Assembly (NCBI RefSeq): GCF_000018105.1
Contig: NC_009931.1
Location: forward strand, 122,962 to 154,961
Source of the DNA: Acaryochloris marina MBIC11017
GTDB taxonomy: Bacteria > Cyanobacteriota > Cyanobacteriia > Thermosynechococcales > Thermosynechococcaceae
DNA length: 32,000 nucleotides
Direction: 5' to 3'
Under the pieces are notes generated by a model. The model made no database searches. It was given only the letters and a program-made list of their open reading frames with translations, and had not been told where the DNA came from. This document shows, piece after piece, positions 8,218 through 25,296 of the stretch; position 1 is the stretch's first letter; every line of letters starts with the position of its first letter. A program made the translations under genes and the position numbers.

Positions 8218-9123
8218 ATGAAAATCACCTGTCCTATCTGTAAATGGCCACTCTACCTCCCCGAGCAGCCCCAAGAAGGGGAGGAAATGGGTTGCCGTCA
8301 TTGCCACTCTTCCTTTGCCATGACTCACACCCATGTGGTGGAGAGTTGGGCCGTGACGACCCAGCATCAAATCCCGTCTGCTTATCTCGCCATTCTATTT
8401 ATAAGGGAAGGAAAAACCCATCGCGTCCAATTGGACCGAGATATCCCACCGGGATTAAACTGCATCGCCTTGACTCCCCTCCACGGTTTGGGTAAACACC
8501 AACCCATCCTGCTGTTGGACCTGCAAACCGCTGGGGTCTATCCATTGACTCATCCTCGGCGGCTGTCCCGCCGTTACCAGCTCCAAGGGGCACTGCTGAT
8601 CGCGGCTATAGCCGCAGGGATAGGCATGGAGTTAAATCTCCCCCAAAACGTGACGACAGGAGCTGGAATTACCAGCAGCTTGGCGGGTGCCTATGGGATT
8701 GCGCGATTCAATCATGGGAGGGAACGGGATCCGAAACGACGGACCCAGTTGTTACGCTCTCAAAGCCTGCTCAAGCAGAGCCACCAACTCGGCGAACGGG
8801 TGCGGGAACTGGAGCGAGAATTGTCCCAGTCCCAGACCTTGAGCCAGCAGTTGCAGGAGCTGTCCAATCGGCCCACCGTCGTCGGCCAGAGTAAAGAGAC
8901 AATTTTGCAGAGAGGTCATAAGGTCATTGAGGGCAAAAATGCCGTCCTGCAACGACTGATTGACTGTTGCCGCAACAGCAAGGATTTGATTGATGTGGAG
9001 CTGATGGCTGCTCAGTTGAGTGAGCAGTTACCGGACGGCATCGATCAGCAGCTTTTAGCCTACCAAAGTGAAATTGAGAAGCTGGAAGAAGAGTACGAAG
9101 GGATGCTTCTCACGACCGTTTAG
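8218..9123 (+). CDS. Zinc-ribbon / membrane / coiled-coil protein, unknown function
   Basis: 301 aa with an N-terminal CPICK...CRHCH pair, hydrophobic Gly-rich segments (GALLIAAIAAGIGMEL, GAGITSSLAGAYGIA) and a Gln/Leu-rich coiled-coil C-terminus. It starts 4 nt after the coupling-protein stop. Confidence 0.55.
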   Translation: MKITCPICKWPLYLPEQPQEGEEMGCRHCHSSFAMTHTHVVESWAVTTQHQIPSAYLAILFIREGKTHRVQLDRDIPPGLNCIALTPLHGLGKHQPILLLDLQTAGVYPLTHPRRLSRRYQLQGALLIAAIAAGIGMELNLPQNVTTGAGITSSLAGAYGIARFNHGRERDPKRRTQLLRSQSLLKQSHQLGERVRELERELSQSQTLSQQLQELSNRPTVVGQSKETILQRGHKVIEGKNAVLQRLIDCCRNSKDLIDVELMAAQLSEQLPDGIDQQLLAYQSEIEKLEEEYEGMLLTTV

Positions 9124-9145
9124 TGAACATAAGGAGACATTGTAA

Positions 9146-9547
9146 ATGCCTAAATTATTTACACCTGAAAAGATTGAGGTGATTTCCCAGTTACGTCCAG
9201 AGATTCAGCAGCTACGGGAGCGTTACCCCTTTACCTTTGCAGAGTATGCAGAGACCATCTTAGCTGGGCAAACTGACCCCTTTCCCCCTGGTCATCAGTT
9301 TGAGCAGTTTGCCGTCTACTACGGGGATACGGCCCGTCGCCCTGGTTATCTGTTTATGGATGGTAAAGCCACGATTGATTTCGTGGAACCCATAGATACG
9401 GGAGTCATCCAAGCCAGGGGCAATTGGGATTGGGTCTATTTCCAGGTAGAGGGCTATGTGCTGCTCAACCGGATTGAACAGGCCGCACTCCCTCAGATGC
9501 CCACCCTGGACGAATTAGCCAATATGGTAGCCGCTGCAACGGAATGA
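9146..9547 (+). CDS. Hypothetical protein
   Basis: 133-aa ORF with AAGGAGA upstream of the ATG (9131-9137). Composition is protein-like but no motif was recognised. Confidence 0.55.
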   Translation: MPKLFTPEKIEVISQLRPEIQQLRERYPFTFAEYAETILAGQTDPFPPGHQFEQFAVYYGDTARRPGYLFMDGKATIDFVEPIDTGVIQARGNWDWVYFQVEGYVLLNRIEQAALPQMPTLDELANMVAAATE

Positions 9548-11463: not shown

Positions 11464-12136
11464 ATGCAAACTGCGATCTTAAGAGTTGGAGACGCAAGCC
11501 TCCTGGTGACCCCGGATGGTAAGCCGCTTCCCCACAAGGATGCAGAGCAGCCAACCTTCCACATCATGCCTAAGCTGTTTAACACAGGTGCTGGGATTGG
11601 GCTGGAGAACATCACTCTGTATGGTGCCCATGTTCTAGCCTTTGGCAAGAGTGGAGACGATGAAAAGGATTACATCAATGTCTTGCCCAAAGATGTCAGA
11701 CTCACCAATCCTTGTCCGAATATCAGATATGTCATTGCAGGTACGGCTGATCGGAAGATGGGTTGGGACATTCCTTTAGACCCCAGCAAGCCCCCTCAGC
11801 AACTTCGGTTGTGGTGGCTCTTAGAAACACAAACGGATAGCACCATCATCGAGCACTATATCGACCTTGAATTTGAGCTAACCCAAAGGGGGAATGTTTT
11901 CTCAATGGCATCCCTCAATTTTGCTGTTGGAGAGGGGCCAAGGGCAGTTAGCTTTGTCGATCCTGAACAGGCTTGTGAATTTTTTACCAGGAATGATCCT
12001 GCCTATCAAATTGGATATAAGGGCGCGGATCTCATCATTCGCCAATCCAACAAGATCCAGTCCTGTGCTTGGTCTGATCTGGGGTTGGAAGAGTTTGAGG
12101 AAATGGTTCATCTGAGAGATATGACCCCAGTTGATA
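11464..12136 (+). pseudogene. 5' part of a 405-codon gene of unknown function, interrupted by an IS630-family insertion at TA 12135-12136
   Basis: AAAGGAG lies 8 nt upstream of the ATG at 11464. The listed ORF 11464..12360 continues past 12136 only by reading antisense through the IS. Joining 12136 to 15895 restores one open frame (673+545 nt = 406 codons including stop). Confidence 0.75.
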
Positions 12137-12141
12137 AGCAC

Positions 12142-12745
12142 TTAGCTAAAATTAATTACATAATCATCGCCGTAGGTTTTCAAAACTCTTTCCACATATT
12201 CGACCAAAGATGCCCACCCCCAGTAGGCACTCATTTCAATCCACTGATATTTCATGAATTGCCACAGACGCTCAATCAAATTGAGATGGGGAGAATAGCT
12301 TGGCAACTCAAACAAGGTAATTCCCCGTTCGGCCCACTCTGCCTTCATCTCATAGATTGATTGGCTCGTATGGATAGGGGCTTGATCCACCACAATGACG
12401 GTGGGCAACTCCACGTCAGCAAAAAAGGTATCAATGCAATGACTGACAACCTCACTGGTGATGGTCTGTTCTGATGTATAAGCATGTAGCCCTTGTCGTC
12501 GACTCAAAAACCCCAGAACATTCAAGCGTTTACTTGAACGAGTCGGTATTTCCAGATAAGTCCCTATGGGTTGCCATCCATAGGGAATACAGGGGACTAA
12601 CGAAAAACCACTCTCATCCATAAAGAATAGATGGATGTCTCCCTTCTCTTCCTGTTCCTTGAGATGTTCTAACTGCTGTTTTTTTCGAGGTAGTGGGCAT
12701 ATAAAGGCTGGCCTGATGTCCCTTGGCGAAAGCGATGCCAGCTTA
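12142..12745 (-). pseudogene. IS630-family transposase, 3' portion (end of orfA, A7 slippery site, DDE domain)
   Basis: The DDE-domain ORF 12142..12621 (FFMDESGFSL..., VVDQAPIHTS, YSPHLNLIERLW) extends upstream in the same frame to KKQQLEHLKEQEEKGDIHLFF. A second frame encodes ISWHRFRQGTSGQPLYAHYLEKNSS* and joins the N-terminal fragment once the IS21 is removed. Confidence 0.8.
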
Positions 12746-12940
12746 TATTAGACGACAATCGAGCTGACGGATTAATGACGATGTCACGTCGGCTATAGCT
12801 ATGAAGAAACCAGGCATCCCCTGAGAAGGATAAAACTAGATCTCAATTCCCTAGAAATGATGTGTGAGATCGCGTTTCTAGAATTCAATCTCAAGAAAAA
12901 AGACACTTTTTACATCCCTAATCAATAGAGGGCTGTACAA

Positions 12941-14677
12941 GTGCCTAACAAAAGAATTGATTCCTATCATACTCGTGTTTATATGAACGGAAGAGACCTC
13001 GGCTTAAAACAAGCTGATGCAGCTTACATTGCCGAAATATCTACAAGAACCGGACAACGAATTGAGGCCGGCACCCATCAACCTAATCGCGGCCGCCTTC
13101 AGGACCAACGCACCGTTCCCGACCCCTTAGCTGATGTGTGGGAAGACGAGCTAGAACCAATGCTGCGTCGAGACCCACGCCTCAAACCCATGACCCTGTA
13201 TGAGTACCTGCAGGATAAGTATCCAGGCCAGTATCCCCAAGTCCTGCGGACCCTACAACGTCGGGTGAGAACGTGGAAAGCCTTACATGGACCAAGCCCT
13301 GAAGTGATGTTTGAATTGCGTCATGAACCAGGGGTACAAGGGTTCTCCGATTTTACAGAACTCAAAGGCATCACGATTACCATTGCCGGCAAACCCTTTG
13401 AGCACCTGATTTACCATTACCGTCTGGGATACAGCGGCTGGCGATATGCCCAGATCATCGAAGGAGGCGAAAGCTTTGTCGCCCTCTCAGAAGGATTGCA
13501 AAATGCCTTTGCAGCCTGTGGAGGTGTTCCTACACAGCATCGTACTGATAGTTTGAGTGCAGCCTATCGCAACATGGGCGGCCGCCGGTCCAAAAACCTC
13601 ACTCGTCTGTACGACGAACTGTGTGACCACTATCGGCTAGAACCCACTCGTAACAACAAAGGTGTAGCCCATGAGAATGGCTCCATTGAATCTCCCCATG
13701 GTCATCTGAAGAACCGAATTAAGCAGGCGATCTATCTGCGCGGCAGTGCAGATTTTACGAGCGTTGCTGAGTATCAAGCCTTAATTGATGCACAGGTTGC
13801 CAAGTTGAATCAGCAGTGCCAAACCAAGTATGAGCAAGAGAAAGACCATCTACAACCACTGCCCAAATATCGAACCCCTGACTATGAAGTGCTCACGGCT
13901 AAAGTCAGCAAACGCAGCACCATCGATGTTCGCTGCATTCTATACACCGTCCCTTCTCGACTGATTGGTCGTCAATTGGAACTGCATCTATACCATGACC
14001 GGATTGTCGGCTATCTGGAGCGACACCCGGTGGTGGAATTGCCGAGGAAGCGCGTCAGTGGCAAAGGCAAACGTCGCGACCGTTGCATCAACTATCGCCA
14101 TGTTATTGGTTCAATGCGATTGAAGCCTCGTGCTTTTATCTATTGCACCTGGCAATCAGACCTACTTCCCAATCCTGAATACCGCCAAATCTGGGAACAG
14201 CTCAAAGCCCAATTTGACCTGGAGCAGGCTGCCAAGATCATCGTGGAAGCCCTGTATATTGCTGCGGTTCAAGATAAAGAACAGGCCGTAGCAGTGTACT
14301 TACAGCAGCAGCTTCGCTCATCCAGCCTTACCCTCAATCGCCTGAAAAAACAGTTTGAGCCGCCTCAGATGAAGCAGGTTCCTGAACTCAGCATTGAACA
14401 ACATTCACTTGAACTTTATGACAAACTCCTCCCCTCCTGCTCAGTCCCCGCTGAGCCCCTACCAGCACCTGAGCCTCTATTTAAAAAAGCTCAGGCTCTC
14501 CCACATGTTGACCCATTGGGAATCTATCGAATCCCAAGCCATGCAGGAAAACTGGTCTTATGCGGAATTCTTACTAGCCTTGTGCGAAACGGAGGCCCAA
14601 CGAAGAGAACAAGCTCGTCTAAAACGTGCCCTCACCGAAGCCAGGCTCCCAAACGCAAAAAGTTTTACCAACTTTGA
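12941..14677 (+). CDS. istA: IS21-family transposase IstA
   Basis: 578-aa ORF with a GTG start and an N-terminal HTH region. The integrase-type core has HRTDSLSAAY ... PTRNNKGVAHENGSIESPHGHLKN. A C-terminal ...HSLELYDKLL lies just before the istB start. The last ~260 nt overlap istB in another frame, so the true end is uncertain. Confidence 0.85.
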   Translation: MPNKRIDSYHTRVYMNGRDLGLKQADAAYIAEISTRTGQRIEAGTHQPNRGRLQDQRTVPDPLADVWEDELEPMLRRDPRLKPMTLYEYLQDKYPGQYPQVLRTLQRRVRTWKALHGPSPEVMFELRHEPGVQGFSDFTELKGITITIAGKPFEHLIYHYRLGYSGWRYAQIIEGGESFVALSEGLQNAFAACGGVPTQHRTDSLSAAYRNMGGRRSKNLTRLYDELCDHYRLEPTRNNKGVAHENGSIESPHGHLKNRIKQAIYLRGSADFTSVAEYQALIDAQVAKLNQQCQTKYEQEKDHLQPLPKYRTPDYEVLTAKVSKRSTIDVRCILYTVPSRLIGRQLELHLYHDRIVGYLERHPVVELPRKRVSGKGKRRDRCINYRHVIGSMRLKPRAFIYCTWQSDLLPNPEYRQIWEQLKAQFDLEQAAKIIVEALYIAAVQDKEQAVAVYLQQQLRSSSLTLNRLKKQFEPPQMKQVPELSIEQHSLELYDKLLPSCSVPAEPLPAPEPLFKKAQALPHVDPLGIYRIPSHAGKLVLCGILTSLVRNGGPTKRTSSSKTCPHRSQAPKRKKFYQL

Positions 14678-15236
14678 CTTTAGCCATTGTCCCCAGCTCA
14701 ATCCAGCTCCCTTGATGCAATTAGCCGCAGATCCGGGTTGGTTGGAGCGCGCCGAGAATTGCCTTATTCTGGGGCCCTCGGGTGTTGGAAAAACACATCT
14801 GGCCACTGGGGTGTCCAAAAAGATGCTGGAATTCGGTAAGCGGGTGAAGTTCTTTGCAGCCAACGCATTGGTCCAGCAACTGCAACAGGCGAAGCTCCAA
14901 CTGCAGCTGCATCCAATGCTCAAAAAACTGGACCGCTATGATCTGTTGATCTTGGATGACTTGGGCTATTGCAAAAAGTCGGAAGCGGAAACGTCCGTTC
15001 TGTTTGAATTAATTGCGCATCGCTATGAACGAAAAAGTTTGTTGATTACAGCGAATCAACCCTTCAGCCAATGGGATGACATTTTCACTGATTCGATGAT
15101 GGCGGTGGCTGCCATTGATCGCTTAATTCATCATGGCTTGATTATCGAAATTCAAGCCGATAGTTATCGGCGCAAATCAGCGACTCAGAGAACGGCTCAA
15201 ACTCAGTCTCAACCTCAAAAATCCCAGTCCAAATAA
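14394..15236 (+). CDS. istB: IS21-family helper ATPase IstB
   Basis: Walker A GPSGVGKTHLA, Walker B LLILDDLGY, and an ERKSLLITANQPFSQW block typical of IstB/DnaC-like AAA+ proteins. The real start may be the ATG at 14418 rather than the TTG at 14394. Confidence 0.9.
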   Translation: MNNIHLNFMTNSSPPAQSPLSPYQHLSLYLKKLRLSHMLTHWESIESQAMQENWSYAEFLLALCETEAQRREQARLKRALTEARLPNAKSFTNFDFSHCPQLNPAPLMQLAADPGWLERAENCLILGPSGVGKTHLATGVSKKMLEFGKRVKFFAANALVQQLQQAKLQLQLHPMLKKLDRYDLLILDDLGYCKKSEAETSVLFELIAHRYERKSLLITANQPFSQWDDIFTDSMMAVAAIDRLIHHGLIIEIQADSYRRKSATQRTAQTQSQPQKSQSK

Positions 15237-15415
15237 TCGAGCGATCACTGGTTGTCATTTCGATCACGGGTTGTCGTTTTGTTCTGAAGGTATCGTATGA
15301 GGTCTGAAAAAGAGCTAACGCAAAGGGAGTGTACGCCAAATAATACGGTTCAAATTTGGGGGTTGATCCGCCTTGTGGTTGTCGCGACATCGCCTATGGG
15401 GTTGACATCCAATAA

Positions 15416-15817
15416 GCTTATGTCCATTTGCTTCAAAACGCGTTTAACTGTGGCCTTTGACACGCGTACTGACCACTGTTGTTCAATCTGAGCTAACACC
15501 TGGTTGAGTTGGATGGGAGATGCCTGAGTCCACTCATAAATCTGCTGTTGTTGGTCGCGATTAAACATCGGTTTTCGACCTCGACCTGGGTGATTATAGA
15601 GTCCTGCAAATCCTCGGTTGTTCCAAGCCTTAAGCCAGTTGTAAACCGTTTTAGGACTCACACTAAAAAGGGAGGCTAAGGTATAGGGGGTCCAACCCTG
15701 AGCGAACAAAATGAGGCAATGGGCGCGTTGTCTGACCTGATGATGGCGACTACTGTGATAAATCCGATGCAATAAGCGTAAGCTTTCGGTGGAGATAGGA
15801 CGGACTAATGACATCAA
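15416..15817 (-). pseudogene. IS630-family transposase, 5' portion (HTH / winged-helix DNA-binding domains)
   Basis: MMSLVRPISTESLRLLHRIYHSS..., PKTVYNWLKAWNNRGFAGLYNHPGRGRKP, VSKATVKRVLKQMDIS. After ...MDIS the frame runs into the IS21 end and terminates. The likely start is the ATG at 15814. Confidence 0.8.
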
Positions 15818-15894
15818 ATCAATGGTTGTAAACAGATGACTCAGGTAGTTTACATCCAGGGAATTCTATGTAATTAATTTTTTTCATCTGCTTA

Positions 15895-16439
15895 CCTTCC
15901 ACACCCATTTAGAAGAATTCGCTTCAGATGCCTGTATCGAAATGCCTCCCCACATCCTAAAACAGGCGATCCAGGATGCCATATGGACGGATGACATGCA
16001 GGAGAGCATCTGGAACAAAAGCAGTGGATATGAGCAATCTCCAGCATTGCAACGACTTTGCCGATGGTGGAATGAGAATGCACCCAACCCCGAATATCGG
16101 AGGGCGGCGAATATCGTGTTGTGGGTGAGGGTCGAGGATGATAGCGAGTATTGGGCTGGCTGGTATGAATGCCCAAATATCGATATAGGGGTTCTAACAA
16201 GTGAAATGAGTGCCAATGTTGGTCAGCATGTCATTGTCCAATTCCTGCAGGGTCGAGATGCCTATACACCTATTGGAGGCTATGGCTGCATGATCTGGGG
16301 TGTTGATGGTTGTGAGTATATTGATGTCGGTGCAACCGTTGATGAAGTAGATGAAGCGTATTACGGCCATCATATGTTGAAAGATTTCCCGGATCGCTTC
16401 CCCGTAGCCTGGAAATGCCTTCATGATTTGGCCCAGTAG
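15895..16439 (+). pseudogene. 3' part of the IS-interrupted 405-codon gene (see 11464-12136)
   Basis: The frame is open from 15895 (TFHTHLEEFASDACIEMPPH...) into the listed ORF 15942..16439, and is in phase with 11464-12136 once the IS and one TA are removed. Confidence 0.75.
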
Positions 16440-16479: not shown

Positions 16480-18468
16480 CTATCTAAGTCGTAGTTGCTG
16501 GTGCGATTCTAGCTCCATGCTGGCGAAGTGCTCAAGGAGCATTCGGTGGACAAATATGTAGCCACCGCCAACTTTTTGAAGGAAGAGGCGATCAGCAGCG
16601 TAATCCAGGAAGCGGGCGTAGTTCCAGGGGATATGTCCCATGCGGTAAAGCATTAAGCGGAGTGTGAAGTGTCTTAGGCAAGTAGTGCCACCACCAATCA
16701 GCCCAAAAAACAGCCCAGCACTTACCCCAAAAAACACCCCAGAAAGCAGCGACTTCTCAATTACCCCAAGAATTACCCCAAGAATTACCCCAAAATTGGC
16801 CCCAAAATTCAAAGCATTAATGGCTGACTTCCAAATCCCCTGGTTCGGTTGAAATGTATTCAACATGTCTGGGCCTCTGAGTCCACCAATAACAACACTA
16901 AGCAGCCCAAGAATCAGCCCATATCTCAGCCCAAGAATCAGCCCTTCAATCAGCGCATTAATCAGCCCCCAATACATTTCAAAACTCAGCGCAACAAGCA
17001 GCCCCAAAATTGGCCCCAAAATTAGCCCCAAAATTAGCCTTTTACGAAAAATACTTTTTGCTTCTCTCCAAGACCATTTCAAGGTTTCTACGGTTTTGAT
17101 GTTTCCTGAAAATCCAACGATCAGCCCAATAATCAGCCCATAACTCAGCCCAATTTTCAGCCCCTGAAACAGCTGATACCTCAGCTCAGAAAACAGTTCA
17201 AACGTCGATGCAAACTTCAGCTCTAAAAGCAGCCCAAAAATCAGCCAAGAACTCAGCGTAGTAAGCAGCCCAAAAATCAGCCCAAAAAACAGCCCAAAAA
17301 ACAGCCAACTTATTAGTCCACTTTCTAGACGATAGCGAAGTTTTTGAAACTTAGTCTGAAAGAAACTTGGCTGTATTCTCTCTATCAAAAACACAGTTTG
17401 AGATGTTCGAGACATTTCTTGAGCTAACCAGATCAGCCAAAGTGTTGCTTGTTCTTGGAGGTAGTTTCGAGTAGTTCCCTTACGTTGGAACATACGTTTA
17501 ATATAGGTATCAAACAATCGTTGGCGAAAGATTTCTGATGTAACTGACCTTGGAAGGTTATCCCAGTCAGAACCCTGATAGGCCAGGCTCATAATGCTCA
17601 ATATCAAAGGTGAGGAAGCAAAGGATTTAATTTCAGAGTTCTGGTTGACTATTGCTCGCAACGCTATTAATGATTCCCCAGCTTGCTCAAGGTACTCATC
17701 GATTTGCTGAGGGGTTAACGGTTTAACGTAGATGGCACTTCGCAAAGTTACCTTATCAGAAAGGGCTTCGTAGTCATGAATACGGCTACATACAACCATC
17801 TCGGTACGACCATGAGCTTGAAGGAATTGATTTAAAGCATGTACACAGTCATTCCGATGCTTGGCCTCAACTTCATCCAGGCCATCCAGTAATAGGATTA
17901 ATTGTTCTTTTACGATCCAAGACTTCCCCAATGACTTAGAAACAGTATATTTATCAAAAAGTTCCTCTACTAACCACTCCTCAATGGATTTTCGTTGTCT
18001 AGACCAAGACGAGAGATTGAGCACCACTGGCAAAGGCTGATTTAGATCCGCTTCTGTTCGAGAAATTAGACTTTCCGCTAATTTCAGTAGGGATATTGTC
18101 TTGCCCGCACCTGGCTCTCCCAGAATCAGTAGTGTCCGTCCAGCACCGATATCCTCAAATATATGTGTGGCTGATGTGCCTTCTGGAAAAGCTTGCTTAG
18201 ATTCAGGAGGGAATTCCTCGACACCTTCTAGTGGAGTATAAACATAGTTGTTTCTCTCTTCCAACCCTAATTCAATCAACACTTGGCTATGCAGCGACTT
18301 CGCTAAGACTCCATCAATCCAGAATTGTTGAACTTTACTGAGTAGAACCTTGCGCCATCTATGCTCATCCCGGCTTAAAGGTTTTGCTGTGTCCAAAGGA
18401 GCTTGAGGAACCTTAACAGTACTAAATACATTGACAACCTCAGCATTTTGAATCTGAGTTACCTCCAA
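16480..18468 (-). CDS. NACHT-family STAND NTPase with a C-terminal polytopic glycine-zipper membrane domain
   Basis: Walker A GEPGAGKT (18097-18120), Walker B LILLLDGLDEV, then CSRIHDY. Roughly residues 380-590 (approx 16690-17340) form repeated GLxxGL hydrophobic segments. The tail is FLDYAADRLFLQKVGGGYIFVHRMLLEHFAS. The listed start is a TTG; the frame stays open upstream to an ATG at 18564 except for one TAA at 18544-18546. Confidence 0.85.
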   Translation of the reverse strand: MEVTQIQNAEVVNVFSTVKVPQAPLDTAKPLSRDEHRWRKVLLSKVQQFWIDGVLAKSLHSQVLIELGLEERNNYVYTPLEGVEEFPPESKQAFPEGTSATHIFEDIGAGRTLLILGEPGAGKTISLLKLAESLISRTEADLNQPLPVVLNLSSWSRQRKSIEEWLVEELFDKYTVSKSLGKSWIVKEQLILLLDGLDEVEAKHRNDCVHALNQFLQAHGRTEMVVCSRIHDYEALSDKVTLRSAIYVKPLTPQQIDEYLEQAGESLIALRAIVNQNSEIKSFASSPLILSIMSLAYQGSDWDNLPRSVTSEIFRQRLFDTYIKRMFQRKGTTRNYLQEQATLWLIWLAQEMSRTSQTVFLIERIQPSFFQTKFQKLRYRLESGLISWLFFGLFFGLIFGLLTTLSSWLIFGLLLELKFASTFELFSELRYQLFQGLKIGLSYGLIIGLIVGFSGNIKTVETLKWSWREAKSIFRKRLILGLILGPILGLLVALSFEMYWGLINALIEGLILGLRYGLILGLLSVVIGGLRGPDMLNTFQPNQGIWKSAINALNFGANFGVILGVILGVIEKSLLSGVFFGVSAGLFFGLIGGGTTCLRHFTLRLMLYRMGHIPWNYARFLDYAADRLFLQKVGGGYIFVHRMLLEHFASMELESHQQLRLR

Positions 18469-18577
18469 GTCTCTCCCAGCAACGCCACCAATCTGGACGT
18501 CTTTGAGAACTCCACCAGAGAAATTTATACTCTGCTTTGATGGTTATTTAGACTGTTCACTCATAGCAGGGCTAGCC

Positions 18578-19012
18578 CTATAGCAGGAAGCCTGATGCAA
18601 CTCCTAGCCAGGGAGTGACTTTTTCCACGATTGGTTTGATCTTTTTCCAAAGATTGGACCCTGCTGCTACAGTCTCACCTGCTTCTTTGAGAACAGTAGT
18701 AGCCTTTTTAAGGCTTTTGGCTGCGTAGTCTTTGTCAGGTTCCTCAGCTTGAACTTCTTCCTTAGCTGATTCCAGGTGTCGAAGTGCTTTGCTGGCTTGT
18801 TCTTTTGGTAGTTCTGTACTCTTTAATAAAGCTTCCAGTTGGGTGATGAGGTCAACGACATCAGCTTGCGTTAGTTGAACTTCCGTTCCATCTGTCCCAA
18901 TCTGTTGGGTCTGGGTCACCGTCTGATCGCCTCCAGCTATTCCACCTATCTGGACGTTGGAGTTTTGACCACCGCTGATACTGATAGATTGGGAAGGCTT
19001 TTCTTCTGACAT
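18578..19012 (-). CDS. Small tail-anchored protein with G/Q/N-rich N-terminal motif (candidate partner of the NACHT protein)
   Basis: 144 aa. The N-terminus is SQSISISGGQNSNVQIGGIAGGDQTVTQTQQIG, followed by a charged helical middle and a C-terminal hydrophobic segment VTPWLGVASGFLL. It ends 13 nt before the ATG at 18564 of the NACHT reading frame, on the same strand. Confidence 0.7.
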   Translation of the reverse strand: MSEEKPSQSISISGGQNSNVQIGGIAGGDQTVTQTQQIGTDGTEVQLTQADVVDLITQLEALLKSTELPKEQASKALRHLESAKEEVQAEEPDKDYAAKSLKKATTVLKEAGETVAAGSNLWKKIKPIVEKVTPWLGVASGFLL

Positions 19013-19167: not shown

Positions 19168-22100
19168 TCACCGACGAGGAGATCGCCGTTGATGCTGTTG
19201 CTGCTCCTGGGTAATCTCATTCGCCAACTGCCCCAGATCCTCAAATTTGGCTTGCACCTCTGGGTTGTCAGACATCCGTAAGATCTGGCCCACCTTGACT
19301 TCCAGAATCACCTGACCCGTGTGCTTATCCGTGATGCTGGTATAGCCTCTGCCTGACCTGAGCCGCCAGTTGTCCCCTTCAGAAACGTAGTCGCCCCCTT
19401 GAGCCTCTTCTTGGCCGTAAGCGTGAGTAATCACTCTCACCGCAGCACAGGTTTGACTTGCGAGGCTGTTCCGTTGATTCTCAACCTCCTGATCTATTGG
19501 CTGAGTTGTTTTCTGGAATTCAGAAAGCGTCTGAGCCTGGGCCGTCACATGCAGGAGATGGCCTGCTCGATACCTCAGCAAAACTCGATTTGACTCTTTC
19601 TCCCTAATCATCGTGGTTAGTGGCCCGTGGGTCATAACCCAGGATGGGGTGAAGTAAACCCTGACTCGTCCATGCTGAGAGCCATGTTTTTGAGCCATCG
19701 CTTGGACAATAGGCACCATTGCCATACCAACCTCGGTCTTATGCTTTTGAAGCTCAAGCGCTTTCTCCATTAGGTATTCGCGCTCATAGATGTGCTTAGA
19801 TCCAGCCTCAATAAACCGATACCCATCTTCAAGTTCTCCTCGACGGCTAGCCTCCATGAACACCTCTAGATCCATCCGCTCTGGGGCAAGATCCCCATCT
19901 CGACGCTGAACGAACTCCACCAGCTTGCGATAACGGTATTGATAATGTTTGAGGGCAATTTCTTCAAACGGTCTGGTCCTTGAAATCGCCAGCTCTAATT
20001 GCTTCGGACCCGCCCCCACAATCAGATCATCAACGCCTTTATGTTGGTTATCCCATTTAGAAGCGGATACCGAACAGCCTTCTTTGACCAACAGTTCACC
20101 CGCTCTCACTAAATCCTGACGGACATTCACGATGGTTAAAGGCTTAGTTTCTTGGTCATATAGGAAATTGAAGTGACGACCGGGAACAGCGAAGACAGCC
20201 AAACCAGGATGGAGTTGTCTTATAGGAAGTTTTTTCTTATTGTCATCATTGGCCCGGTATCCACCATTCACACCCGGCAGACCAATCGTGACATGGCCTT
20301 GAGAGTTCACCGCTAGTGTCTTCTTGCCACCCTCCGTAATATTGATGGGAATCTGGGGATTGTCCTTGACCACTGACCAAAAATGCTTCCCTGGCCTGGG
20401 TGTGATGCCGTACTGGTCATAGATCGTTTGGGCTAACCACTCAGGGACATGAGTTAAGAAAATCTCTCGGCTGACATCCGCTGGATGCTCATACTTTTGC
20501 GGTCTGTTCCTGCGGTAATCCATGCGAGGATGATCGGGTTTGAGGCTTCCCCAAAGGGATTCCGTGGGTTCTGGGTCATCCAATGAACTAGCGAGAACCC
20601 CCGCTTTAATCCAGAACCCCCCATCAGGAACATCCCTTAGCTTGGCAAACTCCTCAGAAATCTCTTTAACGACAACCTGCCCTGCGCCCATATCCTCAAT
20701 CTTCGTGGACAACAACCGTTCCAAGATTTCTTGTCCCGCGATGGTTTCACAGTTCAACTCAGCGAGATCTGGGTGAATACCACTGCCTGCTAGCAGCTCC
20801 TGCCAATGCCCCTCAGCAATGGGGAAGGATGCCTCCATGAGTTTTTTGGGGTTTGTTTCTGGAGTCCAGAACACCTTAATGAATTTGGGCTTAGGTGTGA
20901 TGTTGATCCCCTTCCCTTGTAATCGTTCAGCTAGGGTCTTCAATTCCTCCGTGATCGGTCCCTCAGCCACGGCTCCAACCTCCCGCATGTCCCTCACCGT
21001 CTGCCCCAACTCCTGCATCTCTAGGGTTTGGCCAATCATCTGCTGGACTTGCTTCACGGCCTCGTCAACCCCCTCTAAATGTTGGGTGATGGCAGCCTCA
21101 GCCCGCCGCTGGGCGATGGCCTCAGCAAGATTCTTCATCCCTTCATACTCGTAGATAGAGGGCTGTGACTGTAGCTGTTCTATGGAAGTCGCAAGTTCAG
21201 CTAGGGAAGCTTCTAGTCCACTATTGAGTAAGGTTTTCTCTGCATTAATGTCGTGAATCGTCCCCGCTAGTTTAGCCATGCCCGCATAGTCCGCTTGATT
21301 CACCTGAGCCACTTGCTGAGTTAAGCGATCCAGTTTGTCCAGCAGTCCCAGTTGATCCAAAGCTTGCATGTCTTGGTGGGTTTGCCATGTCTGAGCCAAC
21401 TGACCCATCCCTTGATATTGATAGGGCTGAATGGGGAGTTGCTCTAGGGCTTCCGTTAACTGAGCAAGAGATTCGTATATCTCTCTCTGGGCCTGTACCG
21501 TCTGAATCTTCTCGGCTAAGGCACCCATAGACGGATAGATAGGAGAGTTCAGGCGTTCGACCTGTTGCTGGATCTGCTCCAGAACACCGCTCTCACTCAG
21601 CGCCTGGATGTTCTGATGTTGAGTGATGGTTTTGGCTAATCCAGCCATGCCTTGGTACTGGTGACCCTGGAGCTGCTGAATTGTCTCCGCTATCGGCGCA
21701 AGGGCATTCACGAGCTGCTGTTGGGATTGCCATTCTCGGATTGAGCGAACCAGCCTTTGCATTTGGGGGTAGAGAACGGGTTGAGCCTCTGCCCGTTCCA
21801 AGGCTGCGTCGAGGTGTTCTACGGCATCTGGTTGGTCGGCCTCCACCTCAGCGATTGCATCCGTTAGCCCTCGACTCGCCTGCCATTCCTGCAGGCCCGC
21901 ATCCATCGCCCGGATCTGCTCTCGGTAGGTAACCTGTTCCACTGCCTCATCAATCTGGTCAAGGACGTACTGAATCTGCGTGAGATGTTCCGTGAGGTCT
22001 TGTTGTTCTTGCCGTTGGGTGATCGATGCCGCGAGGTTACCCATGTCATAGGTCGGGGGCTGGGGTTCCTCCATGCCTTCGGATAGCTGGTTAACTGCCT

Positions 22101-25100
22101 GATCCAATCCACTCGCTACGATCAGCTGAGCATTTTGATACGCGGTCCAGGATCGGGCTAATCCTGCGAGGGCGTCTCCGAGCTGGGAGCGCTCTTGCCG
22201 TTGGTGGGCATCACTGAAGTCAAGAGACCGCTGTTCTGGAGTTGTTGTTTGATGGACTTGATCTCCTCTGCCGCCGTCTCCACTCCCGCGTTCAGTTGCA
22301 GGTAAGTCATACCGGAGAAGTTCATCTTCTGGGTCAGATCCTCCATTGCTTTCGTTAATTTGGCGATGGATTCCGCCATCTTCTCCGACTTCTGGGCGTC
22401 CAAGGCGTCTTGGAGCTGTTCGATGAAGTGCTGGAGTTCGCCCCTGACGAGATGGGGTAACGTCCCCAACTCCTGGTTGACGCGGAGGTTCAATGTATCG
22501 ATTTTCTCCTCCACTCCTTGAACGGACTGACTGAGAATTTCCATCACCGTGGCTTGGGTTTGCTGTGCGTCCAGGATAGTCTTCTGGTGCTCCAGAATCG
22601 TGTCCAATTTGGCTTCCAGATTGCTCATGATAATCCTTTAATAATTCAGTGGCATTGTCTTGAGCGATACTTTCACTGACTCGCTCATCTAGTTTTTTGA
22701 AACTCTGGCAATAGATAACAATCTCATGGGATTGCCGTGAAATCTTGACGTAGAAAGGCTCTTTAGAGGAGGTGGGATCATTGGTGCTGCTGATGACCAC
22801 CCGCTTGCGACTTTGCCCTTGGGCACGGTGGGCCGTATGCACCAGCGCATAGTCCAGGCAAACGGGATGATCGAGGGAGATAGTGCGGTGCTGGCCCTCC
22901 TCATCTATGACATGCAGGGTGCTGCCCTCGATGGCTACTACCTTGACCTCATCTCCGTTAGACCATTTCTGCTCCTTGTTGTTATGGGTCCAGCGCAGAT
23001 CATCCCCCACGGCGACATTTAGATTTTGAACCTCATAGACCTCCTTATGCTTGTACTTGCTGGGATTGAAGTGATAGAGCCGCCCCCCTGAACTGCTAAC
23101 AAGCAGCTCATCTCCTAACCTACGCTCCACCCGGTAAAGCTTGTCTTTCTGAAGGGGCGTACTGCGATAGTTCTTCTTCTGAAGCTGGATATAATCCCCC
23201 ACTTGGTAGAACTGAACCAGCCGTTTTTGCTCAATCGTCAGATGGCGACTGGCCAGTTGCTGGATATGGTGATCCTCTTCCCCCAACGTCCCCTCTGCCT
23301 TTAGGCCCTGACGGAGTAAGGACATGATCGCTAGTCTTTCCTTGTTCGTGCCCGTGACGAGTAGCGTCTCGGCCCGTTCTTCTGGGCTGAGCTGAAGATA
23401 GTAGTCAGCAAAGGTTTGCTGTCGAATATCTTCGTCTTTGATTTCTTGGATATAGCCATGCTCTTTTAAGAGGCTGACGGCATTTAGCCCCTGACCTTTG
23501 GCAATGAGAGAGACGGCCCGCTTTTGCACGGTGTTGCGCTGGCGCACAATCTGGCTGATATGGAAGGTGGTTGCCCCCGCCCGAATCAGAGACCGCATGG
23601 GGGAACCCGCTGTAATACTGGGGTTTTGCTTGGTATCTCCCACAAATAGAACACGGGCATTCGCTGCCCTGGCCCGACCCAGCAATTCCAACATTTGCTG
23701 TGACCCAATCATCCCTGCCTCGTCTACAATCCACAGTTGATGGGGGGCTAGACTCGGCTTGCTCACTAAGAGCTTGGCGACGGTATTGGTTTTGATACCC
23801 AGTTCCTTGCCTAACACCTTAGAGGCTTTAGTCGTGGGAGCATACCCTTGGATATCGAGGTTGAGATGAGTCAGAACCTGTTTCAATTGGCCCAACGTCC
23901 GGGTTTTCCCCACCCCCGCTAACCCATGCCAGAGGATAAATTGATCTGAGTGGGCCAAGGTTTTAGCCACTGCTTCTAGTTGCCCGACATTTAAACCGCT
24001 CTCTTTGAGCAGCTCCCTAACGCTGTACTCGGACATTAAGGGGGTTTGGGTTTGCCGTCCTAAGTCCCAGCTCTGATGAATGGCTGCTTCTCGCTCCAAT
24101 GCCGCTACGGTGGTGAATCGTTCCGTATTGTTCACCTGATCTCGCAGGGTCAGCAATTCCTCACAGGCTGACATGGCTTGGCTTATATCCTCGAAGCGGA
24201 ACTGGCGGATATTGCCGAAAACAAACTGCTCAATCTGCTCACGGGTAAAGGTAATGGAGCGTTCACTAAGATGGTTGATGGCACTGTGCAACGCCGTCGT
24301 CACCTGATCCGGTCGATACTCAAATTGAGGACTGAGATCCGGTTGAGGCATCCGGTAGTCTAAGGTTTGGGCCGCTTGCTGCCAGACGGCTTGTAAATCT
24401 GTGAGCTTCTGGCCCGGTTCCTTGGCTTTACGGCTTTTAAGGCAAGCGGTTTGCTTGTTTGCGGTGGTTGCTTCTAAACCATCTTTTTCGAGCTGTTTAA
24501 AGATCTGCTGAGAGCGCTTGGAGAAGGTTTCAACCTGCTCACGAGTAATTCCCTCAATCTCAAACGCATCCTTCGTGGCATAGATCTTGTATCCCAAGTT
24601 CTGAATATTCTCAGCCAGGTATTGCCGATAGATTTGCCCCAAGCATTCCTGCATATACATCAGGTCATTCTTACGGCTGCGCCAGGTGCCGTCTGGCATC
24701 TGGGTCGTATTCATCACTAGGGCATGGGTATGCACCTGTGGATCATTGGCCCTGGAGGTGTGGTGGTTAATCAGGGCAATCACCAGATTCTTCGTATTGA
24801 GGGTATGGCGAACCCCCCCGATCATCACCCGTGTTTGTCCATATCGCTCTTGGACGATATCCAGGGTGCGCTTGACGGCTTGCAGGTGGGCATCAAATAG
24901 GCGATAGTCACAGCCAATATGCAGGACCATTGAGGCACTTTTAGGCATGGAAAAAGTGAAGTCATCCCCCACCCGTTCCTTGTGCTTTTCGTTCTTGGGA
25001 AAACCCCTCAGCCTCTCCCCTTCCAGGTTGTAGCCATAGAAAACTTTTTTAAAGTCAGCCCGGTGGACATTTCCCTGTAAACCGAGGGCATAAGCGCCAT

Positions 25101-25296
25101 AGCCATACCATTGAGCGCGGACGAGCTTTCGTAGAGCGGCTGCTTTGGATTCAGCCTCACTGACCGTTTTCCCCTTCCCCTTCTTCTGTACCGACTTGGA
25201 AACATCAGGGCTGTAGTAATCCACCAGCCCCTCATCCTGGAGGTAATAGTCTTCTTTTTCTTTGCAGCCCGTCTGCACGGGCACAATCTTCAGCAT
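19168..25296 (-). CDS. MOBF (TrwC/TraI-type) relaxase - helicase - coiled-coil repeat - Toprim (DUF3854-like) fusion protein
   Basis: 2042 aa. The N-terminus carries YY...DYY, FTFSMPKSAS and the His triad HHTSRANDPQVHTHALV (approx 24724-24765). The helicase has Walker A GLAGVGKT (approx 23902-23925), LWIVDEAGMIG, VLFVGDTKQ and YALVHTAHRAQGQSR. A low-complexity linker and ~8-9 degenerate 40-45-aa repeats follow. Toprim-like INITEGGKKTLAV ... KGVDDLIV lies at approx 20000-20420. Confidence 0.9.
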   Translation of the reverse strand: MLKIVPVQTGCKEKEDYYLQDEGLVDYYSPDVSKSVQKKGKGKTVSEAESKAAALRKLVRAQWYGYGAYALGLQGNVHRADFKKVFYGYNLEGERLRGFPKNEKHKERVGDDFTFSMPKSASMVLHIGCDYRLFDAHLQAVKRTLDIVQERYGQTRVMIGGVRHTLNTKNLVIALINHHTSRANDPQVHTHALVMNTTQMPDGTWRSRKNDLMYMQECLGQIYRQYLAENIQNLGYKIYATKDAFEIEGITREQVETFSKRSQQIFKQLEKDGLEATTANKQTACLKSRKAKEPGQKLTDLQAVWQQAAQTLDYRMPQPDLSPQFEYRPDQVTTALHSAINHLSERSITFTREQIEQFVFGNIRQFRFEDISQAMSACEELLTLRDQVNNTERFTTVAALEREAAIHQSWDLGRQTQTPLMSEYSVRELLKESGLNVGQLEAVAKTLAHSDQFILWHGLAGVGKTRTLGQLKQVLTHLNLDIQGYAPTTKASKVLGKELGIKTNTVAKLLVSKPSLAPHQLWIVDEAGMIGSQQMLELLGRARAANARVLFVGDTKQNPSITAGSPMRSLIRAGATTFHISQIVRQRNTVQKRAVSLIAKGQGLNAVSLLKEHGYIQEIKDEDIRQQTFADYYLQLSPEERAETLLVTGTNKERLAIMSLLRQGLKAEGTLGEEDHHIQQLASRHLTIEQKRLVQFYQVGDYIQLQKKNYRSTPLQKDKLYRVERRLGDELLVSSSGGRLYHFNPSKYKHKEVYEVQNLNVAVGDDLRWTHNNKEQKWSNGDEVKVVAIEGSTLHVIDEEGQHRTISLDHPVCLDYALVHTAHRAQGQSRKRVVISSTNDPTSSKEPFYVKISRQSHEIVIYCQSFKKLDERVSESIAQDNATELLKDYHEQSGSQIGHDSGAPEDYPGRTANPSHGDGNSQSVRSRSGGENRYIEPPRQPGVGDVTPSRQGRTPALHRTAPRRLGRPEVGEDGGIHRQINESNGGSDPEDELLRYDLPATERGSGDGGRGDQVHQTTTPEQRSLDFSDAHQRQERSQLGDALAGLARSWTAYQNAQLIVASGLDQAVNQLSEGMEEPQPPTYDMGNLAASITQRQEQQDLTEHLTQIQYVLDQIDEAVEQVTYREQIRAMDAGLQEWQASRGLTDAIAEVEADQPDAVEHLDAALERAEAQPVLYPQMQRLVRSIREWQSQQQLVNALAPIAETIQQLQGHQYQGMAGLAKTITQHQNIQALSESGVLEQIQQQVERLNSPIYPSMGALAEKIQTVQAQREIYESLAQLTEALEQLPIQPYQYQGMGQLAQTWQTHQDMQALDQLGLLDKLDRLTQQVAQVNQADYAGMAKLAGTIHDINAEKTLLNSGLEASLAELATSIEQLQSQPSIYEYEGMKNLAEAIAQRRAEAAITQHLEGVDEAVKQVQQMIGQTLEMQELGQTVRDMREVGAVAEGPITEELKTLAERLQGKGINITPKPKFIKVFWTPETNPKKLMEASFPIAEGHWQELLAGSGIHPDLAELNCETIAGQEILERLLSTKIEDMGAGQVVVKEISEEFAKLRDVPDGGFWIKAGVLASSLDDPEPTESLWGSLKPDHPRMDYRRNRPQKYEHPADVSREIFLTHVPEWLAQTIYDQYGITPRPGKHFWSVVKDNPQIPINITEGGKKTLAVNSQGHVTIGLPGVNGGYRANDDNKKKLPIRQLHPGLAVFAVPGRHFNFLYDQETKPLTIVNVRQDLVRAGELLVKEGCSVSASKWDNQHKGVDDLIVGAGPKQLELAISRTRPFEEIALKHYQYRYRKLVEFVQRRDGDLAPERMDLEVFMEASRRGELEDGYRFIEAGSKHIYEREYLMEKALELQKHKTEVGMAMVPIVQAMAQKHGSQHGRVRVYFTPSWVMTHGPLTTMIREKESNRVLLRYRAGHLLHVTAQAQTLSEFQKTTQPIDQEVENQRNSLASQTCAAVRVITHAYGQEEAQGGDYVSEGDNWRLRSGRGYTSITDKHTGQVILEVKVGQILRMSDNPEVQAKFEDLGQLANEITQEQQQHQRRSPRR
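22158..22628 (-). CDS. Embedded ORF in the +1 frame of the relaxase linker: 156-aa coiled-coil protein (possible relaxosome accessory protein)
   Basis: The ATG at 22628 is preceded by AAGGA (22638-22634) with a 5-nt spacer. An in-frame TAA lies three codons upstream of the ATG. The translation is protein-like (MSNLEAKLDTILEHQKTILDAQQ...). By hand count, 115 of 156 codons end in G/C. The relaxase frame over the same bases is Gly/Arg/Pro/Ser low complexity with many A-ending codons. Confidence 0.5.
   Translation of the reverse strand: MSNLEAKLDTILEHQKTILDAQQTQATVMEILSQSVQGVEEKIDTLNLRVNQELGTLPHLVRGELQHFIEQLQDALDAQKSEKMAESIAKLTKAMEDLTQKMNFSGMTYLQLNAGVETAAEEIKSIKQQLQNSGLLTSVMPTNGKSAPSSETPSQD

Follow-up and report, generated by a model that had tools for sequence, protein, structure and literature searches.

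How might a bacterial receptor be coupled to the small protein that is encoded beside it, and to what end? This question is raised by two adjacent genes on a conjugative plasmid of the cyanobacterium Acaryochloris marina MBIC11017. The genes lie within a stretch of 32,000 nucleotides (nt) (contig NC_009931.1, positions 122,962 to 154,961), which is called the window below and whose numbering is used throughout. The upstream gene (18578..19012, minus strand) encodes a candidate effector of 144 amino acids (aa), a 100% match to the hypothetical protein P0001 of Acaryochloris marina. From the TAG stop codon of this gene, a spacer of 13 nt (18565..18577) leads to the ATG at 18564, where the gene for a NACHT receptor begins (16480..18564, minus strand). 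In its intact form the receptor gene runs to 694 codons; the window copy has an interruption at codon 7 and is annotated as a product of 662 aa starting at TTG 18468, the same product as P0226, the database entry for a plasmid of A. marina MBIC11017. On balance we lean towards reading the pair as a two-gene conflict module of the NOD-like receptor (NLR) type, serving defence or programmed cell death and carried as plasmid cargo, in which a motif common to both proteins couples the receptor to its partner.

A motif shared by two adjacent genes

A first-pass annotation of the window had described two co-oriented genes 13 nt apart whose products have an N-terminal motif in common, and on both counts it was correct. 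The small protein begins with MSEEKPSQSISISGGQNSNVQIGGIAGGDQTVTQTQQ, and the receptor frame reads MSEQSK*PSKQSINFSGGVLKDVQIGGVAGRDLEVTQIQN, the asterisk marking a stop codon. When these N-termini are aligned, 18 of 29 residues are identical. The same codon is used at seven of the 18 identical residues and different codons are used at the other 11, which implies that the similarity has been kept at the level of the protein. A recent DNA duplication or gene conversion was considered as the source of the likeness and is ruled out by the 11 codon differences. A motif profile built from 25 homologues of the small protein matched the receptor N-terminus with E = 2e-12, and gave no other significant match among the 4,382 six-frame open reading frames (ORFs) of the window.

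On the effector side, the motif is rich in G, Q, N and S, occupies residues 7-37 (SQSISISGGQNSNVQIGGIAGGDQTVTQTQQ; 18902..18994, minus strand) and is conserved in the family alignment (A1). On the receptor side, the segment matched by the profile is QSINFSGGVLKDVQIGGVAGRDLEVTQIQ (18448..18534, minus strand), for which the family consensus is QxLNISxSxLExVQIGGIAGRDLxLTQIQG. The two consensus forms stay distinct, with SISGGQLSN in the effectors and LNISDSxLE in the receptors. The residues Q, N, G, S, T, V and I together make up 79% of the effector-side motif and 66% of the receptor-side motif, and K, P and L together 6% and 11.5%, respectively. The motif is about 30 aa long and is disordered in the AlphaFold2 (AF2) models of both proteins, with a predicted local distance difference test score (pLDDT) below 50 on the effector side. 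By analogy with the signalling systems discussed below, it may be of an amyloid or templating nature.

Conservation and co-variation of the pair

Relatives of the small protein were found at 32 cyanobacterial loci in a scan of one genome per species. An adjacent NACHT gene of 550-855 aa with a related N-terminal motif is present at 24 or more of the 32 and is usually immediately downstream and co-oriented. In these other loci, the motif profile reached E-values of 1e-7 to 1e-12 and was restricted to the adjacent gene. The paired receptors have their Walker A motif near residue 150 and 4-8 hydrophobic segments starting near residue 410. Even the spacer of 13 nt recurs (in L001-L004, L007, L009, L018 and L039). 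The locus L039, on a chromosome of the Leptolyngbyaceae, came from a search that started from the receptor side, and its receptor has a partner of 145 aa 13 nt upstream. The same search gave a chromosomal receptor paralogue in A. marina (L038, 2501-4693), which has no small-protein partner upstream and has a degenerate motif, SVQIGDITGQNLKLEQIQ (IGDITGQN); judged by its sequence, this paralogue is consistent with decay of the motif following loss of the partner.

Two receptors stand in tandem in L003, L004 and L014. In L014 (Trichormus, 8445-9350), the first of the tandem receptors carries the motif twice in succession, GQIGQAGRDVNQLRLIFG then SQIGQSGRDLHQVQFIFG. This doubled motif recalls the pseudo-repeats described for HET-s and for some BASS proteins.

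The motifs of the two proteins not only occur together but also vary together, which the first-pass annotation had named as a check. Over 22 loci, cognate motif pairs scored 60.5 by BLOSUM compared with 51.0 for non-cognate pairs (p about 3e-4), and their identity was 0.370 compared with 0.340 (p about 8e-4); the permutation test is uncorrected for shared ancestry, and the co-variation is therefore supportive rather than decisive. Individual loci illustrate the correspondence: a short form, GQAGRD, is found on both sides in L012, L014 and L019, and L028 has AQAKGN on the effector side and GQAEGN on the receptor side.

The small protein

The small protein appears to lie outside the known families: Pfam and NCBIfam gave no family, and its family profile had no match among PDB sequences. 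No description of the family was found in the literature searched. In the AF2 model, calculated from an alignment of 25 sequences, residues 1-44 are disordered and are followed by a predicted four-helix domain (residues ~47-133; 18614..18874, minus strand), with helices at 49-65, 70-88, 94-114 and 116-136 and a pLDDT of about 80. The protein ends in a hydrophobic tip of 11 residues, PWLGVASGFLL (18581..18613, minus strand), in which P134, W135, G137 and A139 are nearly invariant. This tip had been taken for a tail anchor. A hydropathy scan, however, found no 19-residue window that reached the threshold in the small protein of the window or in nearly all of its homologues; the tip has too few residues to form a transmembrane helix, and a tail anchor is thus unsupported. 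A Foldseek search of the model against the PDB gave no significant fold match, the hits being generic four-helix bundles (best E 0.46). Matches to the N-terminal bundle of clostridial toxins (E 1.4-2) and to MLKL (probability 0.11) were also returned by Foldseek and were not used as evidence.

The family comprises 78 cyanobacterial clusters at 90% identity, nearly all of 141-150 aa, and an exhaustive profile search extended it to 417 representatives at 50% identity. The module made up of the motif and the helical domain is always the extreme C-terminus of the proteins in which it occurs. Besides the stand-alone form, it ends proteins with TIR, CHAT, caspase plus CHAT, pentapeptide-repeat and LRR-Roc-COR domains, and in such fusions the motif sits between the N-terminal domain and the helical domain. 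It is found, for instance, at the C-terminus of LRR-Roc-COR (ROCO) GTPase and pentapeptide-repeat proteins (P0220, P0133 and P0149), and is thus a portable C-terminal module whose distribution extends beyond NLR partners.

The module also matches the C-terminal part of PDC-M14B, a phage-defence candidate family of PADLOC (E = 2e-11). The match covers profile positions 148-262, and the same partial match is seen in the fusion relatives, whereas the N-terminal ~145 positions of this profile of 261-275 positions are absent from the small protein. The receptor matches no PDC-M14 component among the PADLOC profiles, and a search of the literature for PDC-M14 found no description of it.

The receptor

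The receptor has a NACHT P-loop domain (17683..18138, minus strand; PF05729, E = 8.9e-11, 42.3 bits against a cut-off of 26.7), in which a Walker A motif, GEPGAGKT (18097-18120, minus strand; its lysine is K155 in 694-aa numbering), and a Walker B or NACHT signature, DGLDE (17872-17886, minus strand), can be read directly. In its AF2 model (pLDDT 72), a disordered N-terminus leads into the NACHT core, which Foldseek matches to NOD2 and to NAIP/NLRC4 with a probability of 1.0. Six long helices follow at 398-634 (687-aa numbering). They correspond to a polytopic membrane region of the Gly-zipper type (GLxxGLxxGL; 16642..17352, minus strand), in which hydropathy analysis predicts eight hydrophobic segments and in which residues ~405-641 form hydrophobic Gly-zipper helices. 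The protein ends in a segment consisting of a helix, a beta-hairpin and a helix (FLQKVGGGYIFVHRMLLEHFA; 16519..16620, minus strand), modelled as helices at 642-652 and 667-675 and strands at 655-658 and 661-664. Its invariant residues are G659, G661, Y662, F664, H666, E671, F673 and A674. A Pfam search of the receptor gave no repeat families of the kinds used as sensors (LRR, WD40 or TPR).

Receptors of this kind are abundant, with more than 4,000 proteins matched in the database. The best 120 matches are 44-69% identical to the window receptor, except for one identical entry and one at 40%, and mostly cover more than 85% of the query. The order of parts is conserved: the N-terminal motif, the NACHT core, the GLxxGL-rich helices with two loops, and a C-terminal FLDYAxERLFLQKVGGGYIFxHRMLLEHFA. 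The two loops within the membrane region (TVETLKWSW and PNQGIWKSA) are themselves conserved in the homologues. The YIFxHRMLLEHFA sequence and the helix-hairpin-helix are found only downstream of the membrane region.

NACHT proteins have a conserved F-x-H...E-[FY]-x-A element in their winged-helix domain. We infer that the C-terminal segment of the receptor is the winged-helix end of the NACHT module. If so, the membrane region would be an insertion inside the NACHT module and not a sensor appended to it. A profile of the receptor with the membrane region deleted, searched against PDB sequences for confirmation of the winged helix, gave P-loop noise only. The first-pass annotation had proposed a NACHT protein in which a membrane domain replaces the repeat sensor. 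The NACHT domain, the membrane region and the lack of repeats all stand, but the membrane region is not a simple C-terminal replacement, as the conserved helix-hairpin-helix with its invariant His follows it. The membrane region is the sole candidate for the sensor of this receptor. In the literature searched, a NACHT protein with such a membrane insertion is undescribed beyond a general remark on transmembrane (TM) domains in bacterial NACHT proteins.

The DNA that encodes the membrane region (16642-17352) is highly repetitive. Its plus strand has numerous CAGCCCAA(A/G)AAT-like units, which reflect the GLxxGL repeats and could make it liable to slippage. The length of the membrane region varies widely among the homologues, which range from 620 to 855 aa overall.

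An exchangeable receptor N-terminus

Among the closest 120 receptors, 52 have the motif described here, at residue 1-4. Many of the others bear one of two different short motifs, DQRSLSIGGSVDNSPIVVGDRNTINQG or IQQDVxGDRNQVIGQ, and one of the 120 has a fused CHAT domain instead. In Oscillatoria sp. FACHB-1407, a receptor with the third kind of motif is preceded by a protein of 150 aa. In this protein, a hydrophobic helix at the N-terminus and a helical body are followed by a motif at the C-terminus, GNQNQVIGQVTGGNVFGNITGNVNL, that matches the GDRNQVIGQMLGG of the receptor. By its sequence, the Oscillatoria pair has the canonical Bell/BASS layout of Dyrka et al. Since a receptor of a sister clade is paired with a canonical Bell-like protein, the effector of the window clade has a reversed polarity, and the same receptor chassis would appear to work with either kind of partner, canonical or reversed, depending on the clade. 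The first-pass annotation had noted that the order of parts in the small protein is inverted with respect to Bell/BASS, and this comparison, in which the canonical layout adjoins a sister clade of the same receptor family, strengthens the point.

Beside the Oscillatoria pair of Bell-like and NACHT genes, there is also a gene for a TIR protein (L036, 1899-2543) that ends in a different short motif rich in G, N and Q, WQINVSGGTVNIGHPPQL. This suggests that there may be several motif-coded effectors around one receptor.

Comparison with known systems

BASS motifs are rich in Q, N, G, V and I, poor in K, P and L, and about 25 aa long (Dyrka et al. 2020, bioRxiv 10.1101/2020.01.06.895854), and the motif of the window fits this description in composition and length. 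The published sample (PMC8086366, supplementary file 2) supplied the sequences for profiles of the BASS families. BASS1 scored best, at 6.6 bits for the effector motif and 4.7 bits for the receptor motif compared with -0.8 +/- 1.8 for shuffled sequences; BASS4 was second at ~3.7 bits, and the other families of BASS1-10 were at background. The BASS1 profile contains ASGxARVYQAGRDQHITER and has the core SG...[IV]xQAGRD[QL]x[IV]T[QE] in common with the window motif. The motif could thus be called, at best, weakly BASS1-like, which describes a resemblance rather than a demonstrated membership.

Membership of the helical domain in the Bell family was also considered and was rejected: the hhalign probability was 0.5% for one sequence and 6.3%, over 32 columns, for a Bell-like profile of 22 sequences. 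A faint and non-significant likeness can be seen when alignments A1 and A4 are compared, with GETVxAGxxLWxKVKPI in the present family and GETAxxKxxExAxxKAxAIWxKLxPK in the Bell-like family. Both the GETV and the GETA segments adjoin the hydrophobic end of their protein, on opposite sides.

Like Bell/BASS pairs, the window pair consists of adjacent collinear genes with a tiny spacer and has a cyanobacterial distribution. A Q/N/G-rich motif of ~25-30 aa is common to the NLR N-terminus and to a small helical partner with one hydrophobic terminus, and the receptor family of the window also pairs with a canonical Bell/BASS protein. Unlike in Bell/BASS pairs, the motif of the partner is N-terminal (residues 7-37 of 144) and its hydrophobic end is C-terminal, and in place of the TPR or WD repeats of Bell/BASS receptors there is a membrane region. 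The original Bell/BASS screen covered the C-termini of Bell proteins only (Dyrka et al. 2020), and the literature searched, to August 2026, places such motifs at effector C-termini.

The closest analogue that has been tested is Bab/Agp of Escherichia coli, a system of amyloid signalling in abortive infection (Abi) that uses BASS11 and for which there is experimental proof (bioRxiv 10.1101/2024.11.07.622273). There, too, two genes encode a sensor with an N-terminal motif and a small helical executioner with a motif of its own, and coupling of the two motifs by amyloid templating is proposed to lead to membrane damage; the window pair, unlike Bab/Agp, is known from sequence and predicted structure alone. 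A similar analogy can be drawn with the fungal HET-S/NWD2 system, in which a motif at the N-terminus of an NLR serves as the template for its homologue in a helical protein that targets membranes. HET-S differs in that its HeLo domain is N-terminal and its prion-forming domain, with two pseudo-repeats, is C-terminal; NWD2 differs in sensing by WD repeats, and the system is eukaryotic. By sequence, the arrangement in the window is a mirror image of both Bell/BASS and HET-S/NWD2, with the motif N-terminal and the hydrophobic end C-terminal.

The receptor can be compared with the bacterial NACHT (bNACHT) proteins, which have a D[GAS]hDE signature, are rich in paralogues in cyanobacteria and have TM domains in several clades (Kibby et al., bioRxiv 10.1101/2022.07.19.500537). 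The window receptor has the same NACHT module, Walker A motif and D[GAS]hDE signature. Most of the bNACHT proteins described, by contrast, have effector domains fused at the N-terminus and either repeats or short extensions at the C-terminus, whereas the window receptor has a motif of 30 aa in common with the product of a separate gene and a membrane region that precedes its last winged-helix-like segment. Kaur et al. 2020 and Kibby et al. 2022 were searched for this architecture and contain general remarks on TM-containing NACHT proteins only.

A recent nonsense allele

An in-frame TAA at codon 7 of the receptor (18544-18546, minus strand) falls between the ATG and the motif. For this reason, ORF callers begin the receptor at TTG 18468. 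The codon is CAA (Gln) in a near-identical strain, from which it differs by a C>T nonsense mutation. In the 161-nt alignment A2, which comprises four sequences, the sole difference is C or T at window position 18546: TAA is found in the window, L034 and L035, and CAA in L033. The small protein is present on seven contigs; the downstream gene encodes 694 aa in L033 and the 662-aa form in two others. The contig L033 and the window share 99.94% identity over 6.6 kb, and the two differ by five single-nucleotide polymorphisms (SNPs), the nonsense change among them, over ~7.4 kb of shared sequence. A second SNP in the receptor gene, at window position 17806, is T versus C on the coding strand and lies in a third codon position.

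A nonsense codon ahead of the motif means that this copy of the receptor most likely cannot signal, and from the sequence the pair is probably non-functional, with the receptor disabled, in this window. Because both genes are otherwise intact and are only a few SNPs away from a functional-looking allele, the loss must be very recent. The lineage of the window is thus a very recent knockout, or at least one in which the motif has been decoupled from the receptor. The two alleles form a natural pair, as the receptor is intact with CAA and is severed from its motif with TAA, and the intact CAA allele is the one to clone for experiments.

Genomic surroundings

The pair is located between a gene for a TrwC-type relaxase and insertion sequence (IS) elements. 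The relaxase-type protein (2,042 aa, with TrwC and helicase domains and DUF3854; 19168-25296, minus strand) is encoded directly upstream, which places the pair right after a conjugative transfer gene of the plasmid. On the other side, IS21-type istA/istB genes (12941-15236) and an IS630-like ORF with a helix-turn-helix (15350-15817) both lie inside an insertion of 3,756 bp (12137..15892), which is present in the window and absent from L033. This insertion splits a gene of 405 aa and unassigned function that is convergent with the receptor gene, the halves being at 11464-12136 and 15893-16439. The GC content is 0.41-0.46 over 16.5-19 kb compared with 0.50-0.56 in the flanks. These observations support the earlier description of the locus as AT-rich cargo of a mobile element, here an Acaryochloris conjugative plasmid, adjoining IS elements. 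Scans for promoters and terminators over 16.3-19.3 kb gave counts close to those expected from shuffling, and none of the sites was convincing.

Proposed mechanism and alternatives

How, then, could the pair work? A trigger sensed at or in the membrane would release oligomerisation of the NACHT domain. The clustered receptor motifs would then form an ordered beta assembly, which would recruit the small protein through its homologous motif or template that motif. The small protein would then polymerise, and this might unlock its helical domain and hydrophobic tip so that they act on the membrane; in the fusion relatives, polymerisation would cluster a TIR or CHAT enzyme instead. The cell would be killed or arrested as a result. 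By analogy, the coupling is probably of this homotypic, templated kind. Templated assembly has been shown experimentally for HET-S/NWD2. It has also been shown experimentally for Bab/Agp (bioRxiv 10.1101/2024.11.07.622273). A more specific version, which we put forward tentatively as a possibility that may well prove wrong, is that the motif, the four-helix domain and the tip make up an unrecognised executioner or assembly module of reversed polarity, which is beta-templated by a NACHT protein embedded in the membrane. The Gly-zipper inserted in the winged-helix part would then be the sensor of an NLR for which the membrane state itself is the signal, and the module would be reused on TIR, CHAT, caspase and Roc-COR proteins.

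Several observations weigh against this mechanism and against a conflict module in general. The window copy is broken, and no phage-defence phenotype is known. AF2 leaves the motif disordered, and no structural prediction has it in an ordered or amyloid assembly. A handful of divergent lineages account for the co-variation signal. In a test on 13 close pairs, cognate motifs had no significantly greater likeness than non-cognate ones (p = 0.077), and significance was reached only once the divergent lineages were added. The similarity to BASS1 is weak, amounting to a few bits. The helical domain had no relation detectable by hhalign to Bell (6.3%) and none detectable by Foldseek to any solved pore-former in the PDB, and the hydrophobic tip of the small protein has just 11 residues. 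The motif is also kept in all-in-one fusions such as the LRR-Roc-COR proteins, in which templating by a separate receptor seems unnecessary. Finally, the Gly-zipper region of the receptor could itself be the effector.

This last point leads to the main rival explanation, which we regard as unlikely, though to be taken seriously: the Gly-zipper region kills through a pore assembled by the NACHT domain, and the role of the small protein would be that of a stoichiometric adaptor or regulator, perhaps an inhibitor or a chaperone, which attaches to the N-terminus of the receptor by strand pairing and not by templated polymerisation. Among the membrane-active elements of the two proteins, the GxxxG-rich polytopic region is, after all, the one that stands out most, and a full transmembrane segment is lacking in the small protein. 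A heterotypic interface would also fit the distinct consensus forms of the effector and receptor motifs and the lack of pair-specific similarity among close pairs. The fusions argue otherwise, as the module is joined to typical effectors (TIR, CHAT and caspase) and not to regulators; so does the N-terminus of the receptor, which behaves as an exchangeable output end, carrying other motifs, a CHAT domain or a motif matched to a Bell/BASS partner on the same chassis of NACHT and membrane region.

Two further explanations appear improbable. The window pair might be a decaying remnant without current function, the nonsense codon and the IS insertion being marks of the erosion of cargo. TAA is indeed present in three independent assemblies of the lineage while a 99.94%-identical contig has CAA, and a 3.76-kb IS insertion splits the neighbouring gene. 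Such decay, however, would concern the present state of the window copy only and not the nature of the module; both genes are otherwise intact and, but for a few SNPs, identical to the functional-looking allele, and translation from TTG 18468 could still yield a product of 662 aa that lacks the motif. Slightly more improbable still is that the shared segment is a common low-complexity leader, such as a signal for localisation or turnover, which the two proteins carry independently, their adjacency reflecting co-expression only. The segment is compositionally biased and predicted to be disordered, and in the fusion proteins it is internal, like a linker. Yet its conservation goes beyond composition to specific positions (VQIGGxAGRD), its profile matches in other loci are confined to the adjacent gene, its changes are correlated between partners, and it has decayed in a receptor that lost its partner. 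Coupling of the receptor to the small protein through their common motif is the reading that we prefer to these alternatives.

Implications

The logic of the BASS/Bell systems is kept in this pair, and what is new is the reversed polarity of the effector, the output domain and the unusual receptor. If the motif is a templating element, then amyloid-type NLR signalling would not be bound to the rule, assumed by all published genome screens, that the motif stands at the effector C-terminus, and such screens would have overlooked a family that comprises 417 or more sequence clusters. Two further novelties would come with the pair: a small helical output domain without known relatives, and an NLR for which a membrane region inside its NACHT module is the sole candidate sensor.

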